DNA from: a virus
Taxonomy: Duplodnaviria > Caudoviricetes
DNA: 28,516 nucleotides
Reading direction: 5' to 3' (one strand)
Virus record (IMG/VR): IMGVR_UViG_3300017747_001699
Span: 1-28,516 of that record
A program made the translations under genes and the position numbers. This document shows, piece by piece, positions 1 to 19,285 of the stretch. Below the pieces are notes generated by a model. The model saw only the letters and a program-made list of their open reading frames with translations. It searched no databases and had not been told where the DNA came from. Position 1 is the first letter of the stretch. Each line of letters begins with the position of its first letter.

Positions 1-123
1 GATGCATCAGTCAAAGACATATCTACAACTTTAACTTCTGCGAAGTCGCTATTGGCATCTACACCAACAAACAAGTTGTCAACTTTAGATACAACGATAG
101 TACCTGTAGTCATTCCAGGACAA
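1..123. repeat. Terminal direct repeat, left copy (circular assembly overlap)
   Basis: 1-123 (GATGCATCAG...CCAGGACAA) is identical to 28394-28516, and the capsid ORF reads through the junction in frame. Confidence 0.97.
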
Positions 124-821
124 ACATAAATGTCATATCCATCAACTTGCATATTGAACTCTTTGAACGCGTTGTACTCGAATGCATATCCCGCTTTTGC
201 GATTGCTTGACGATACAATTGCGCAGTAGCGCGGTTCATATAAACCTTTGTATCGGGGTTACCAATCAAAGCCTCTGGCAACAAAGCCAAAACCGATTGA
301 ATGTTCTCGATAACATTGTCTACAGTCATTGTACCATAAGTAGCCTCCAAAGTTGATTGAGCCTTGATGATTTTTTCAAATCCATCAAATCCTTGATAAG
401 AACCTGTAGTTGTATCACCTTGCCAAATTGTGAACTCAATGTTTTGAGCAACTTGAGCAGCAGCGTAACCAATCAAGAAATCAGAGAAGTTAGCAGGAAC
501 AACATCGTTAGCAAATCCACGACCTGTAGAAGCGGCTTCCCAATCCTTTGCGAATTGTGATTTACAAACTTCCAAATTAACTTTCAAATCTTTAACCTCA
601 AGAACTGCCTCGTTCAAAGTCAATGCAGTTGGATCTTCGAATGCGCAAGTGAAATCTTGAACCAAGTTAGCAGAAGACAATTTCTTCAATACTGCCTTGT
701 ATTTAACACCCTCTTTAAGTGTTACGTATCCTTTCGCCAAAGTGTCTCCACTCAATAATGCAGCGTGAATATATGGTAATGCTAATTCACCTGCGTATGT
801 ACCGTTAATAGTAATAGCCAT
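1..821 (-). CDS. Major capsid protein, 5' part (continues across the junction to 28309; 301 aa total)
   Basis: Hand translation from ATG at 821 gives MAITINGTYAGELALPYIHAALLSGDTL...NIEFTIWQGD...YVCPGM with no stop. It joins the 28309-28506 ORF, follows the protease and scaffold genes, and is followed by a terminator. The YAGE/AALLS/IWQG motifs resemble Bacteroidota siphophage capsids. Confidence 0.9.
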   Translation of the reverse strand, partial: MAITINGTYAGELALPYIHAALLSGDTLAKGYVTLKEGVKYKAVLKKLSSANLVQDFTCAFEDPTALTLNEAVLEVKDLKVNLEVCKSQFAKDWEAASTGRGFANDVVPANFSDFLIGYAAAQVAQNIEFTIWQGDTTTGSYQGFDGFEKIIKAQSTLEATYGTMTVDNVIENIQSVLALLPEALIGNPDTKVYMNRATAQLYRQAIAKAGYAFEYNAFKEFNMQVDGYDIYVCPGMTTGTIVVSKVDNLFVGVDANSDFAEVKVVDMSLTDA

Positions 822-825
822 TTTT

Positions 826-11574: not shown

Positions 11575-11601
11575 AGACGCAAAAGGTTACTTTTTTAGGA
11601 G
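11575..11601 (-). promoter_or_regulatory. Candidate late promoter, probably giving a leaderless mRNA
   Basis: Minus strand CTCCTAAA-N14-CGTCTTTAAGAT-ATG; the core ends 7 nt before ATG 11567. Confidence 0.6.
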
Positions 11602-13422: not shown

Positions 13423-13791
13423 CTAAACTTTTGATGTTAACAAAATATTCTTAAGATTTGGCTTAAAGTACAAATCGCTTTTCATAACCTTGCCATCAGC
13501 ACGATAGATAGGCTTTCCATCCTTATCTAACTTACTCATATTAGAACGGTGTACTTCATCGAATAAAACCTCTAATTTGTCCTCTATTTGAAGGTTACAA
13601 GCATAACCGATAAGTAAGTACATTTGGTCTATAATCGCGTCTGCTATTTCAACGTGATTATTTGCTTGGATCATCTCTTCAAGTTCCTCAGTAACCAGAG
13701 CCTGATGCAATTCCTTATCGCAGTCGTGAACGTTATTCGATAAACCAAACGCAGTTCGGAACTCTTTTACTTGTTGTACTTGTTTAAACAT
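13423..13791 (-). CDS. MazG-like / PRA-PH NTP pyrophosphohydrolase (probable start MFKQVQ)
   Basis: V.EF..AF, EELEE, EIADAIIDQMY and EVHRSNMSKL..GKPIYRADGKVMK. Confidence 0.88.
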   Translation of the reverse strand: MFKQVQQVKEFRTAFGLSNNVHDCDKELHQALVTEELEEMIQANNHVEIADAIIDQMYLLIGYACNLQIEDKLEVLFDEVHRSNMSKLDKDGKPIYRADGKVMKSDLYFKPNLKNILLTSKV

Positions 13792-13984
13792 AACACATTT
13801 TTTTTGATTCGTAACCTTTTGGAATTTCAATCAATTCAATTATTTCAAAATCATCAATTCCAATTCCACATTCCCAAGGACCGCACACTTCAAAATTATT
13901 ACGAAATAACGCAATAACTAATATTTCATCCCCACTAATTGCCCAAAAGTGTTGACCTTCTTTTATATCATCTTTATTTATCAT
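13784..13984 (-). CDS. Hypothetical protein
   Basis: 66 aa, coupled by overlaps to both neighbours. Confidence 0.6.
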   Translation of the reverse strand: MINKDDIKEGQHFWAISGDEILVIALFRNNFEVCGPWECGIGIDDFEIIELIEIPKGYESKKMCYV

Positions 13985-14337
13985 ACATCTAACTTGGTTT
14001 TAAAGTGGTTTATCAGTTGTTCCATTTTGTGGTCGTAAAACTTAGCAAAGGTTAAGAACCCTTCCTTATCTTGTTCCCATAGTTTATATAGCACGTTGCG
14101 TAATCTTTGACCATTGCTTTTCTTTTCTATTTCAAAGTCGGCTTTTAACTCATCAAGAACCTCTTTCTCTTTAGACGCAAACTCTTCTTCTTTTAGAGCG
14201 CAATAGACAAACGAGTTTTGTAAACTGAAGATTTGCCCTGCTTGGTCGGGTGTTAATTCATTTGTGCCTATTACAATGGCTGTAGTTCGGTCTTTACGAC
14301 TTTTGATAGATTCGATTTGTGCAGGTAGTATTATCAT
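13981..14337 (-). CDS. Conserved-looking phage hypothetical protein
   Basis: KSNGQRLRNVLYKLWEQ...FY..KMEQLI.HFK.KLD; preceded by a TATATTTG element. Confidence 0.7.
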   Translation of the reverse strand: MIILPAQIESIKSRKDRTTAIVIGTNELTPDQAGQIFSLQNSFVYCALKEEEFASKEKEVLDELKADFEIEKKSNGQRLRNVLYKLWEQDKEGFLTFAKFYDHKMEQLINHFKTKLDV

Positions 14338-14352
14338 TGTTGTTATCTATTA

Positions 14353-14360
14353 CAAATATA
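14353..14360 (-). promoter_or_regulatory. Bacteroidota primary-sigma -7 element
   Basis: TATATTTG 15 nt upstream of ATG 14337; the -33 element is poor. Confidence 0.55.
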
Positions 14361-14384
14361 ATCATTTTTCAATTAACTCCATAG

Positions 14385-14717
14385 TTAGGTTTTTAGGTGA
14401 ATAAAGATTTAAATCAAATAAATCAAAATTCAATCCTATTTAATTATCTCTTTAACTATAATTGATAATTACTCATTGTCCAAAAGTTCCAGTTAGGCTC
14501 TGGCATTAGTAAGGATTCTTTAACTTCCTCTCACCACTACGTTGCACCTCTGCATTGCGTAGATTTATTATTACTAATGTTATTCGCTATCCAAGAAATC
14601 TCACTTGCGTTACCAACTCGGAATAGCGGTTCTTTTCACAATCGCTTTTATTAGTCGCTTAATTATAGTTACACGACAAGGGATTAAAACGGGAAAAAAC
14701 CTTATTGACCTACCTAA
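14385..14717 (-). ncRNA. Large structured non-coding element (~333 nt), family unknown
   Basis: No ORF of 60 aa or more. Nested inverted repeats: 14394-14406/14700-14712, 14453-14463/14661-14671 (11 bp perfect), 14475-14486/14632-14642, 14504-14512/14571-14579 (9 bp perfect), 14537-14541/14558-14562 and 14585-14595/14617-14628. Confidence 0.65.
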
Positions 14718-14767
14718 AAAAAATCCCCCAATGATTTAAACGTGTTGAGTGTCCAAATCAAAGGGGG
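14716..14767 (-). terminator. Long terminator/attenuator hairpin with U8 tail
   Basis: Minus strand CCCCC-UU-UGAUUUGGAC-ACUCAACAC-GUUUAAAUCA-UU-GGGGG-AUUUUUUUU; two G-U pairs fix the strand. Confidence 0.75.
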
Positions 14768-14829
14768 AAACCTTAAGAATCACTCAACGTTACAAAGATG
14801 CACTAAAATACAATCGGTTGCCTTAATAC

Positions 14830-15012
14830 TTATTCACGATTCTTCAACAACCCAAACCACCATAGAGGAAAGGTAAAGGAAGTGAATAGCATACCTACTA
14901 TGTTATCAGTTGTGAAACGAATGGAGTGATAACGCATTAGAGTCAGGAAGAATCCAATATGTAGTAATACGGTCGTCAAATACGACATAAAAAAGAAATG
15001 TAGCAGGCTCAT
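14830..15012 (-). CDS. Small membrane protein
   Basis: 60 aa with two hydrophobic segments; ATGA overlap with the upstream gene. Confidence 0.65.
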   Translation of the reverse strand: MSLLHFFFMSYLTTVLLHIGFFLTLMRYHSIRFTTDNIVGMLFTSFTFPLWWFGLLKNRE

Positions 15013-15512
15013 TGAGTTCTTCGTTTTCTTCCACGTTTTTTTGGTTGTGGGTGTTCAACTTCATTTGTACTATCTAACAACTCGGAATCTTCGCGCTTAA
15101 GTTGGTGCGTTAATTCGTCAACTATTTTCGTTACGCATCCAATACAATGTCTCAACTTAATAGGCTTTGTGTCTCCATTGATAATGGCTTTTAACTTGCC
15201 GAGAACGGATCGTTGCTCACCTGTAACTACTCCCGACTTCTTAATGGTTGCAATCAATTCCTTTGCTTCTTCGATTGTATCATTGTCAGTTTGTGCTGTC
15301 CACATCTTTGCAGGACATTCTTGGAGTGCCATTCTTGCTTTAACATCCATAAAACACCCGCAAGGCTTAAACTTAACTCCGTTCATCTCCTGCCATTCGT
15401 TAAATGGATTGAGTTTGGATAACGCAGTACCACAGGTGCGGGTTGTGTGATTAAAAATCGGACAGGCTTTACAAATGCTCATCCGATATTCGAACATCTC
15501 TTTATTCGTCAT
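15009..15512 (-). CDS. Cys-rich metal-binding protein (DUF6171-like N-terminus)
   Basis: R..ICKACP...C...CGCFM.VK......CP..W plus HCIGC and a basic tail; coupled to the sigma gene. Confidence 0.7.
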   Translation of the reverse strand: MTNKEMFEYRMSICKACPIFNHTTRTCGTALSKLNPFNEWQEMNGVKFKPCGCFMDVKARMALQECPAKMWTAQTDNDTIEEAKELIATIKKSGVVTGEQRSVLGKLKAIINGDTKPIKLRHCIGCVTKIVDELTHQLKREDSELLDSTNEVEHPQPKKRGRKRRTQ

Positions 15513-15999
15513 ACTTAATACATTTTTTTATTTCCTCTTTGGCACGTTTGACCGTGTCGTATAAATAGCTTACAGGTATGCCAGTCTCATTTGATAGTTC
15601 GCGGTAACTAAAACCATTCATAACGTATAGATTGAATACCTCACGTTCAAAGAATGGAAGCCTACTCATTAGGATGTCAAGTTGCTCATTGGTAATTCTT
15701 GCCCCTATCCAACTTTCACGGGCGTTGTGTACTTCTATTTCAAATTGATGCGGTTCTAAATCAGTCCAATTAGCTTGAAAGTCACCAATCAACTTCTTAT
15801 AACGTGTACGTGGTCTTATATATTCCCACTTAAGAGAACAAATAACGTAGGAATCAATGTCATTAATCTTGGATGTGTCAGTTTCAAGGATGTTTAAAAG
15901 TGTAGAGTGTAAAAGTTCATCCCCCTCAAATTGTGATGCGGTTATATTCCTCGCAAAAATGCGGTATTTATTATATTGTTCCTGCGAAATAACCATCAA
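15502..15999 (-). CDS. ECF-like (sigma-70 family) RNA polymerase sigma factor
   Basis: 165 aa. Region-2-like ARNIT...GDELLHSTLLNIL and region-4 LPFFEREVFNLY..GFSYRELSNETGIP..Y..TVKRAKEEIK. Confidence 0.85.
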   Translation of the reverse strand: MMVISQEQYNKYRIFARNITASQFEGDELLHSTLLNILETDTSKINDIDSYVICSLKWEYIRPRTRYKKLIGDFQANWTDLEPHQFEIEVHNARESWIGARITNEQLDILMSRLPFFEREVFNLYVMNGFSYRELSNETGIPVSYLYDTVKRAKEEIKKCIKYDE

Positions 16000-16366
16000 T
16001 TACTTTTTGCGCTTCGTCAAATCCTTTACATATAGACGCATAATAACCCCTTTTGTTTAGTTGTTTGATCCATTCCTTCTGCTCTTTGCTTACCACACCT
16101 TTCTCGGTCTTTAATTCAATAAATAACCCGTGATACTTTTCGTTTGGTTCGCATATCTGCAAATCAGGAAAGCCTTTTACGTACCCAGTAGCCTTCATTT
16201 TTATGGCTTGTTTCATCGAAGTAAACATTCCACCTGCTGAAGCACAATAAATAGCAGTAGGATAAGCCATTTTAAGATACTGAATAACCGCAATTTGTAC
16301 ACCCGCTTCACCTGAATATGGTTTTTTAGCACGTGGTTTAAGACTATTTACTATCTTTTGCTTCAT
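15971..16366 (-). CDS. VRR-NUC domain nuclease (PD-(D/E)XK, possible resolvase)
   Basis: E..VQ, GYVKGFPDL, GLFIELKTEKG.VS.EQ.EW..L...GY. Confidence 0.92.
   Translation of the reverse strand: MKQKIVNSLKPRAKKPYSGEAGVQIAVIQYLKMAYPTAIYCASAGGMFTSMKQAIKMKATGYVKGFPDLQICEPNEKYHGLFIELKTEKGVVSKEQKEWIKQLNKRGYYASICKGFDEAQKVIDGYFAGTI
16034..16058 (-). promoter_or_regulatory. Candidate autoregulatory promoter of the sigma gene
   Basis: Minus strand AAACAAA-N13-CGTCTATAT inside VRR-NUC, about 35 nt upstream of the sigma start. Confidence 0.5.
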
Positions 16367-18241: not shown

Positions 18242-18464
18242 ATGGGAATTATTTGTTTTCGCTTGGTTCGGCACTACACCGAGCCTTGCGAAAGCAATGA
18301 ACATCAGTTATCCACAGGCGCAAAAGTGGACACGTTATCCGATGCTAATGCACGTGTGCGACATTACCAAGATAAGCAAGTATACTGGCATCAGTTCAAA
18401 GGAAATCGTAGAACTAATCTTGGAAAGCGAAAAAAAAACAATTAAAAACGAAGGCGATGAGTAA
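18231..18464 (+). CDS. Cro/XRE-like helix-turn-helix protein
   Basis: FGTTPSLAKAMNISYPQAQKW..YP pattern. Confidence 0.65.
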   Translation: MKSKWELFVFAWFGTTPSLAKAMNISYPQAQKWTRYPMLMHVCDITKISKYTGISSKEIVELILESEKKTIKNEGDE

Positions 18465-19080
18465 TTCTTTAATACAATTTCTTGACCGTTATAGGATTAA
18501 GAACTACCGCGAATTTCTTAACGTGTTCACCAATGAAAACGCGAAAGAACTACAACGGATGATTATTGAGAAGGAAGAAAACTACGTTTATTCCTTTGAA
18601 GATAAGGTAATTGACTTATTGTGTCGTACCCACGATGTCACACGTAAGCAGTTTTTTTCTCGGTCACGTGAACGGTTTATAATAGATGCGCGTTATATTG
18701 CGACACTTTTAATTTATGCAGGAACAAACTATTCGCTATCAAAGATTGGGCAGTTAATAGGCGGCAAAGACCACGCGACTATTTTACACGCGGTTAAAAA
18801 AATGGTTGACCTTTACCAAGTTGATTCCATCTACCGAGCCTATATAGATGAGGCGATGTTGTTACTGGATAAAGAATATGACTGTGGAACTTTAAAACAA
18901 CGATTAAATGAACGAAGAGCAATTAGAACAAGCGTTAAAATCCTTGACCTTAAGGGTACAATCACTCGAAGAGCAACTGATGTTATCGAAGTGCAAGACA
19001 CCGCGAATATCGTTTTCGCCCCCGACAATGGAGGAAGTGGCGGAATACTTTTTGGAGCGCATTCCGTTTGCGTGTTCTGA
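18457..19080 (+). CDS. DnaA C-terminal (domain IV) DNA-binding protein
   Basis: SRSRER.IIDARYIA..L....YSLSKIGQLIGGKDHATILHAVKK; no AAA+ domain. Confidence 0.9.
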   Translation: MSNSLIQFLDRYRIKNYREFLNVFTNENAKELQRMIIEKEENYVYSFEDKVIDLLCRTHDVTRKQFFSRSRERFIIDARYIATLLIYAGTNYSLSKIGQLIGGKDHATILHAVKKMVDLYQVDSIYRAYIDEAMLLLDKEYDCGTLKQRLNERRAIRTSVKILDLKGTITRRATDVIEVQDTANIVFAPDNGGSGGILFGAHSVCVF

Positions 19081-19285
19081 TGATGCGCTTAACTTTGCAG
19101 AAGTATTTATAAGCCATTACACTAATACTAATTGGTACTATGGCAAAAAGAAAATGAAAGATTGGAAGGCGGCGATGAGATCCGCTTGGAAACTTCACGA
19201 ATTTGTAACAACTAAAAACAATAACTATGAATCAAAACTTGGTAGAGTACAAAGGGCAGACCTACAACAATGGCTTGACAGTTGA
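18908..19285 (+). CDS. Replication initiator-like protein (DnaD-like C-terminal domain only)
   Basis: FSPPTMEEV..YF...AEVFISHY...NWYYGKKKMKDWKAAMRSAW, with an N-terminal coiled coil. Confidence 0.75.
   Translation: MNEEQLEQALKSLTLRVQSLEEQLMLSKCKTPRISFSPPTMEEVAEYFLERIPFACSDDALNFAEVFISHYTNTNWYYGKKKMKDWKAAMRSAWKLHEFVTTKNNNYESKLGRVQRADLQQWLDS

Follow-up and report, generated by a model that had tools for sequence, protein, structure and literature searches.

Cassette A (14380..14706, minus strand), a conserved structured core of about 330 nt in a phage genome, represents a real and new family of structured RNA, predicted to be read from the minus strand. The assignment is based on 15 syntenic loci, an alignment of 22 sequences, and counts of changed base pairs. 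In related phages, the same slot is occupied by exactly one of three unrelated cassettes, and A may be an RNA-defined, R-loop-primed replication origin, a tentative reading to which slightly less than an even chance is given here.

The window, i.e., the whole stretch of DNA analysed (28,516 nucleotides), is a complete virus genome of 28,516 bp with direct terminal repeats. Among the 41 proteins scanned, a portal, terminase, protease, endolysin, holin, VRR-NUC, sigma region-4, and DnaA_C helix-turn-helix protein were annotated, and no integrase, polymerase, primase, helicase, or reverse transcriptase was detected. A 257-aa protein gave a weak DUF6633 lead (11% of one cluster), and third-position skews did not clearly differ between gene blocks. 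The host is likely a Bacteroidetes bacterium, because the terminase has its nearest match in Flavobacterium phage 11b (42%) and the promoter motifs are of the Bacteroidetes type. A close relative with cassette B (L455) was found on a 4.9-kb contig in a bin labelled Rhizobium; this contig is probably mis-binned and names no host. The slot corresponds to the longest gap between called genes (14338-14829, 492 nt; the runner-up measures 232 nt), in agreement with the earlier note, which had described it as the only long non-coding stretch. Window positions 1-825 likewise have no gene call; they form the edge of the terminally redundant record, where a coding region appears to have been cut. The upstream anchors of the slot, the genes for the VRR-NUC nuclease (15971-16366) and the sigma-70 region-4 protein (15502-15999), are both located on the minus strand.

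Homologues of the element were collected using the neighbouring 13981 gene as bait. In the best 80 of 140 loci, the element was present in 15, 14 of them near full length with ends at nearly the same positions, whereas pattern scans gave few further A homologues, all in the same setting; the alignment comprises 22 distinct sequences. The 99-pair structure is formed in 99.9% of cells across the 22 sequences, and 28 of the 99 pairs change on both sides (equalled in 0 of 500 shuffles, with slid controls pairing at 35-44%), pairing figures that are not probabilities, the structure having been derived from the same related sequences. One-sided changes in mostly Watson-Crick pairs yield 11 G-U and no A-C on the minus strand, a count tilted by the choice of the pairs on that same strand. 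An unannotated phage non-coding RNA, as proposed in the earlier note, is well supported as a predicted minus-strand transcript by this covariation in syntenic homologues, by the one-sided G-U changes, and by the discrete ends.

The fold is probably not a rod, two of its hairpins being joined by a kissing pseudoknot. All helices that the earlier note had listed are present in the sequence; the single closed rod that it had drawn from them is the minimum free energy (MFE) fold of one sequence, and in the 22 homologues the 11-bp helix (14453-63/14661-71) pairs two hairpin loops. These belong to hairpins 14679-73/14658-52 and 14471-64/14448-41, each of which covaries independently. Within the kissing helix, one of the 11 pairs has changed on both sides (11 vs. 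11 sequences), which may be a single event, and one has changed from U-A to U-G. Hairpin P2/P3 (14643..14691, minus strand) carries the 5′ kissing strand (14671-14661) in its loop, and four of the seven pairs of P3 (14679-14673/14658-14652) are changed on both sides. The 3′ kissing strand (14463-14453) lies in the loop of hairpin P10 (14441..14471, minus strand; stem 14471-14464/14448-14441), in which three pair types occur at one position (GC 11, CG 9, AU 2). Between the two hairpins is the P4 domain (14475..14642, minus strand), whose closing helix (14642-32/14486-75) shows changes on both sides in two of 10 pairs. The P5 arm (14628-14585, minus strand; GCAA loop at 14608-14605) shows them in six of 11, and P6 (14579-73/14510-04, minus strand) in three of seven; P6 encloses P8 and P7 (GAGG loop), with three of five and three of four pairs changed on both sides recorded for P7. 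A GNRA loop is found in the window's clade. On the same strand, P9 (14503-14489) is invariant, and the 3′ hairpin P11 (14395..14437) differs in register between clades. The whole is closed by the basal helix P1 (14702-14695/14394-14387, span 14387..14702, minus strand), in which seven of eight pairs are invariant and one varies from G-C to G-U. This is the conserved register of the basal helix, which had originally been drawn longer; the extension at 14716-14712 and the pairing 14708-14701/14399-14406 are not conserved. The previously suggested AGUUA/UAACU pseudoknot was not borne out, as one position is broken or gapped in 18 of 22 sequences and another is broken in five of 22. Four pairs of an AATCC/GGATT helix are kept in 21-22 of 22 sequences, and this helix competes with others. 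A 7-nt direct repeat between a loop and the 3′ end of A is altered in seven of 22 sequences; no G-run was found in the A alignment and no mirror repeat in A.

Folding of the single sequence gives a different picture of the strands. The plus strand folds at -69.7 kcal/mol (z -4.12; 0 of 100 shuffles as good), and the minus strand reaches z -1.58 (10 of 100 shuffles as good), so that folding above chance is seen on the plus strand and not on the minus strand. In addition, the nested consensus without the kissing helix lies about 20-35 kcal/mol above the MFE in the four sequences tested. At the gathering score, none of 4227 Rfam families matches the element, three Rfam matches being at chance level (E 0.58-2.6), and neither ARAGORN nor Rfam calls a tRNA or tmRNA in it, in agreement with the earlier note, which had recognised no tRNA, tmRNA, intron, or riboswitch. 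Nucleotide searches of phages and plasmids with the element returned short chance matches only, and scans of viral, metagenome, and genome sets with short sequence patterns, which would miss remote structural relatives, found no A outside the phage group, the genomes giving three short hits. Two RNA runs from one study, compared with positions 13500-15600, contained contigs of relatives over the flanking genes; inside the element, there was only a 35-nt partial match, which is probably unrelated. In the literature searched, there was no account of the element, of the three-way slot, or of a phage mirror-repeat RNA. According to the accessible text of PMC10690425, IMG/VR has been mined for candidates of 29-151 nt, which may include fragments of the leader or of any of the three cassettes.

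On the minus strand, a promoter motif at 14800 comes first; it is followed by a 75-nt leader and cassette A, and then by another promoter motif, at 14360. Both motifs are of the TAnnTTTG class, which we take to be the Bacteroidetes host-type -7 promoter. The first (14793..14800, minus strand), one of 11 matches in the window, directly precedes the leader in relatives and is the likely start of the non-coding unit. The second (14353..14360, minus strand) likely drives the 13981 gene independently of the cassette. No host-type motif was found on the plus strand near the cassette, and a scan for sigma-70 promoters, whose consensus does not cover this host group, remained at chance level. The leader (14716..14789, minus strand; repeats I23 and I4) is about 75 nt long. 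A terminator hairpin (14768-14755/14737-14724), followed by a U run, has in its loop the segment 14752-14745, with which the 5′ strand of the leader (14789-14782) pairs. A 5′-to-loop helix of 7-12 bp is possible in all 56 distinct leaders, with freely varying sequence; for the leader of the window, a 5′ helix of -14.4 kcal/mol may form first, and the terminator fold reaches -29.0 kcal/mol. The modelled folds are consistent with an antiterminator/terminator switch. In the window and in a relative (L211:5125-5216), the leader was also observed to be hypervariable in sequence with its structure kept and without an Rfam match, and it could be a separate small RNA.

With this promoter-like motif and terminator of its own, the element is separated from the sigma operon, downstream of which it had first been placed. 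The slot is probably outside the control of the phage sigma factor, because another motif, TGCGTCT, precedes structural gene blocks. Three of the six occurrences of this motif lie upstream of three such blocks, and the phage sigma factor likely uses it as its -10 element. TGCGTCT was noted at window positions 11581, 4032, and 1457 (minus strand) and 16380 (plus strand), in intergenic gaps ahead of structural gene blocks.

Relatives without A hold cassette B (about 280 nt) or cassette C (about 170 nt) at the same place. Across 63 distinct slots, derived from 114 spanning loci, A was found in 13, B in 26, and C in 24, and no slot was empty or double. Thirteen loci showed no cassette: 12 of them stop before or at the slot, and the remaining one, from a distant phage, shares the leader design and contains a B-like core. 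The profiles of A, B, and C do not cross-match, and the cassettes have no common sequence. A quick tree was made from 68 backbones, and each of its three large starred clades includes A, B, and C phages; the tree has 26 type changes compared to a shuffled mean of 31.3 (as low in two of 200 shuffles), and the type stays mixed in 21 protein trees. The trees of TerL and of the adjacent 14830 gene show some clustering by type (0 of 200 shuffles; for TerL, 16 type changes vs. 22.0 in shuffles), although the starred TerL clades hold two or three types; the trees of TerS, portal, and sigma alleles do not follow cassette type. Outgroup phages, with 50-56% identity in the 13981 protein, have no slot beside the 13981 gene.

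Other components of the slot come and go, namely tRNAs and small ORFs, and the cassette is constant. A T-loop motif was detected in 12 of the 63 slots, all 13 A slots being without one, and tRNA genes are present in some B and C slots. In several B and C phages (L003:2259-2488; L013, L018, L064, L012), a tRNA, degenerate tRNA-like genes, and small structured inserts were observed between leader and cassette, most of the tRNA or tRNA-like inserts being missed by ARAGORN. No protein family is tied to one cassette type except a 78-aa ORF, which adjoins A in 33 of the 34 loci holding it (duplicates included) and is absent from the window and several other A phages. This ORF (e.g., L006:2743-2976) was seen only directly after cassette A and has been lost in many A phages. 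Its product has close homologues only (eight matches) and a confident alpha/beta model; comparison of folds (Mediator Med17, Z 9.7; frataxin, Z 7.3; viral matches, E >0.001) suggested no function. Because the slot is always filled, never doubled, and freely swapped, the cassette is suggested to be an essential cis-acting part, which fits with no protein family being needed by one type.

With regard to the sister cassettes, C is distinguished by its pyrimidine tract. All 36 tracts are mirror repeats with arms of 12-26 nt and differing sequences (0 of 200 shuffles each), a count that refers to the 36 stretches with a tract among 116 distinct stretches behind the C pattern, 80 without a tract having been set aside. 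A homopyrimidine mirror repeat is established as a signature of triplex formation, as also indicated in the accessible text of PMC12214015. In a C-type transcript, the purine partner of the tract would be its own template strand. In several loci (e.g., L046:618-799, L376, L399, L458:12055-12150), the mirror repeat was seen behind a small conserved bulged hairpin, and freshwater forms have an extra covarying kissing pair. Cassette C is widespread in flavobacterial phages. In more distant ones, it lies directly behind a promoter motif and is followed by genes for NinG, Erf, and a helicase-like protein; the window's initiator query matched none of five distant C-phage records (one complete), and 32 ORFs scanned from two such records included no initiator. 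A complete C-type phage (G001; L457:851-4353) was found to carry a queuine tRNA-ribosyltransferase-like gene, whose neighbours presumably resemble 7-deazaguanine pathway genes.

Cassette B covaries in 21 of 57 predicted pairs. In all three records, its 5′ domain matches the Rfam family Betaproteobacteria-1 (RF02932) at 26-35 bits, below the cut-off of 49.4; this family does not match A, and no function for it was found in the literature searched. Cassette B (L045:2644-2935; L211:5240-5520) measures about 280 nt, shows several apparent pseudoknots, and reaches far past the 120-nt Rfam model. Five genomes carry true Betaproteobacteria-1 RNAs. In three of these (G165:C1:10523-10641, G206:C3:4107-4224, and G227:C4:67743-67861), the RNA shares its strand and prophage region with an ORF whose match to initiator profiles is confined to their C-terminal part; in G206 and G227, positions 176-277 of a 298-position O-like profile are matched at residues 38-162, and in G165 the RNA lies inside a lambdoid prophage. 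The other two carriers gave no match with the initiator query, and 20 kb around the RNA of one genome (G133) contained no recognisable phage genes. The three prophages with truncated initiators are probably kin. Their combination of such a protein with a Betaproteobacteria-1 RNA is a suggestive parallel to that of truncated initiators with cassette B in this phage group.

The initiator-type protein of the window (18908..19285, plus strand; 125 aa) is composed of a short N-terminal segment and a C-terminal initiator domain only. Over residues 33-92, it resembles a 'replication initiation protein' from a Porphyromonas phage (E 1e-8), and, within a 228-position PHROG, the protein matches positions 121-196 only. 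A length of 119-126 aa is kept in 48 of 54 distinct rows of relatives; of the remaining rows, five have an earlier, alternative start codon, and the last is an aberrant one of 60 aa. In lambda O and other replisome-organiser origins, the initiator has an N-terminal DNA-binding part and the iterons lie inside its gene. The window's initiator keeps the C-terminal domain, without that N-terminal part and without in-gene iterons (a single repeated 10-mer was found in its region), and appears, from its domain content, to be truncated. It is the putative partner of the cassette.

The proposed RNA-defined origin would operate as follows. Host RNA polymerase would pass the leader only in some of its starts, in a regulated proportion, and the A RNA would fold into nested domains locked by the 11-bp loop-loop helix, as deduced from covariation rather than from probing. 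The folded RNA may then stay on its own template and hold the DNA open as an R-loop, a step modelled on cassette C and the truncated initiators. At this R-loop, host helicase and primase would be loaded by the C-domain of the initiator, a protein that itself lacks a DNA-binding domain, and A, B, and C would persist together because each is specific for itself, like plasmid incompatibility types. This reading is supported by the single cassette in 63 of 63 slots, the mixing of types, the C mirror repeat, the position of C in other flavobacterial phages, the truncated initiators, the lack of any primase, helicase, or polymerase among the 41 window proteins scanned, the Betaproteobacteria-1 match of B, and the three prophages that combine a true Betaproteobacteria-1 RNA with a truncated initiator; ARRPOF provides a precedent. 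A role as replication primer or origin, one of several that the earlier note had offered, thus gains indirect support from the triplex repeat of C and the truncated initiators, whereas no observation links A itself to DNA; the case for A would run via C and B and assumes that all three do the same job. Against it are the lack of a mirror repeat and of a G-run in A, the altered 7-nt repeat, the Rfam score of B below the cut-off, the probable kinship of the three prophages, the single pair changed on both sides in the kissing helix, the preference of single-sequence folding for the plus strand, and the position of the nested consensus above the MFE.

Among known systems, ColE1-type RNA II and its control RNA I provide one comparison. 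RNA II is a long structured transcript from a host promoter that acts in cis as a primer and is controlled by loop-loop pairing. Cassette A resembles it in the host promoter motif ahead of a long, ORF-free, structured predicted transcript (a likeness at the level of sequence only), in the loop-loop pairing, in the optional small protein beside it, and in the proposed mutually exclusive types. On the other hand, RNA II has a G-rich tract that seeds the hybrid, which has no counterpart in the A alignment, and A belongs to a phage with a truncated initiator and a terminator-switch-like control, with no antisense promoter of the host type seen and no match to plasmid sequences. The ARRPOF, GEBRO, and PAGEV motifs, as far as their available descriptions go, are like A in size (ARRPOF, 255 nt; averages of 223-349 nt for the three) and in having pseudoknots and kissing loops. 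ARRPOF is placed in a gene-free region sufficient for plasmid replication in the available text of PMC5737381, and its dimerisation via kissing loops is described in that of PMC12990946. A differs in having no Rfam match, in belonging to a phage and not a plasmid, and in being one of three interchangeable forms. By analogy, A would work like ColE1 RNA II or ARRPOF; it is a member of neither family.

The strongest objection to an RNA origin comes from the protein side. The gene for the DnaA_C helix-turn-helix protein (18457..19080, plus strand; Pfam PF08299, E 6e-16) overlaps the initiator gene by 173 nt, and a DnaA-box match is located at 18308, inside a 77-aa HTH gene. Because of this arrangement, DnaA_C and the truncated initiator may possibly be a split protein initiator acting at an ordinary DNA origin.

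Alternatively, A might act in trans, as a decoy, a counter-defence RNA, or a multimeric scaffold similar to GOLLD and ROOL, with A, B, and C kept by a host-range arms race, which we regard as rather unlikely. Such balanced polymorphism would fit an arms race; the 78-aa ORF beside A (33 of 34 loci) and the tRNA genes that the slot also takes count in its favour. GOLLD and ROOL are reported, in the portions available of 10.1101/2024.12.08.627333 and PMC12990946, to occur near phage tRNA islands and to oligomerise via kissing loops; kissing loops are also predicted for A, and the slot takes tRNAs at B and C loci, in none of 13 A slots. However, accessory RNAs would be expected to be absent or stacked at times, which was seen in none of 63 slots, and the mirror symmetry of C would be left unexplained. 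The tRNA motif is missing precisely from the A slots. Moreover, A gives no Rfam match to GOLLD or ROOL, is shorter than these RNAs (550-830 nt in the descriptions available), and fills an apparently obligatory slot.

It is distinctly unlikely that the origin works as folded single-stranded DNA or H-DNA, i.e., as a signal for primase or helicase loading opened by transcription, and not as RNA. Covariation cannot separate single-stranded DNA from RNA, as stated in the available text of PMC5737381, and the C mirror repeat can form H-DNA without RNA. Nevertheless, the 11 G-U vs. no A-C one-sided changes on the transcribed strand, the GNRA loop of the window's clade, and the position behind a promoter motif and attenuator speak for RNA.

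A cis-acting RNA for processive antitermination, such as HK022 put, is still less probable for A. It would need no cognate phage protein, and the element does have a promoter motif close by and stands where a long leftward gene block on the same strand begins. But a second promoter motif follows the cassette, the structural genes have their own TGCGTCT, A is placed after the terminator and not before it, and the long U tract of C should stop the polymerase.

A protein-binding scaffold, also among the roles listed in the earlier note, is conceivable as well. Two further roles suggested earlier fare worst. A packaging RNA forming a ring through loop-loop pairs, as in phi29 pRNA, is highly improbable: the complementary loops could pair between molecules, but cassette type does not follow the TerS or portal trees (TerL shows some clustering, with mixed starred clades), the promoter motif is of the host type, a body like that of A is missing from C, the phi29 pRNA model gives no Rfam match to A, and the window has a TerL-type terminase and a portal. 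A 6S-like polymerase decoy aiding the switch to the phage sigma is scarcely credible despite the adjoining sigma gene and the rod-shaped plus-strand MFE, since 6S RNA forms one rod, about 180-200 nt long, without branches and with a bubble in its middle, whereas the covarying fold of A is multi-branched, pseudoknotted, about 330 nt long, and without a match to the Rfam 6S model, sigma alleles do not track type, and B and C are not rods. Retron msr-msd elements also differ, there being no reverse transcriptase among the 41 proteins of the complete record.

Taken from the sequence evidence, the function of A is likely tied to replication. In many small environmental phages, neither an origin nor a primase nor a complete initiator can be recognised, and ornate RNAs of bacteria include several with a structure and no assigned function. 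The slot is a natural swap system, in which three unrelated cassettes are exchanged among near-identical phages. If the reading of A as an RNA-defined origin is true, truncated initiators would be linked to RNA-defined origins. A broader and more doubtful proposal is a widespread class of phage replicon built on an initiator that lost its DNA-binding domain, with structured RNA supplying the specificity of the origin, and with the kissing-loop cassette A, the Betaproteobacteria-1-like B, and the triplex-clamp cassette C swapped as self-recognition types; if true, RF02932 would gain its first function, and a natural RNA-DNA triplex clamp would be at hand. If the origin reading fails, A would still be a new kissing-loop RNA family under long-term balancing selection.
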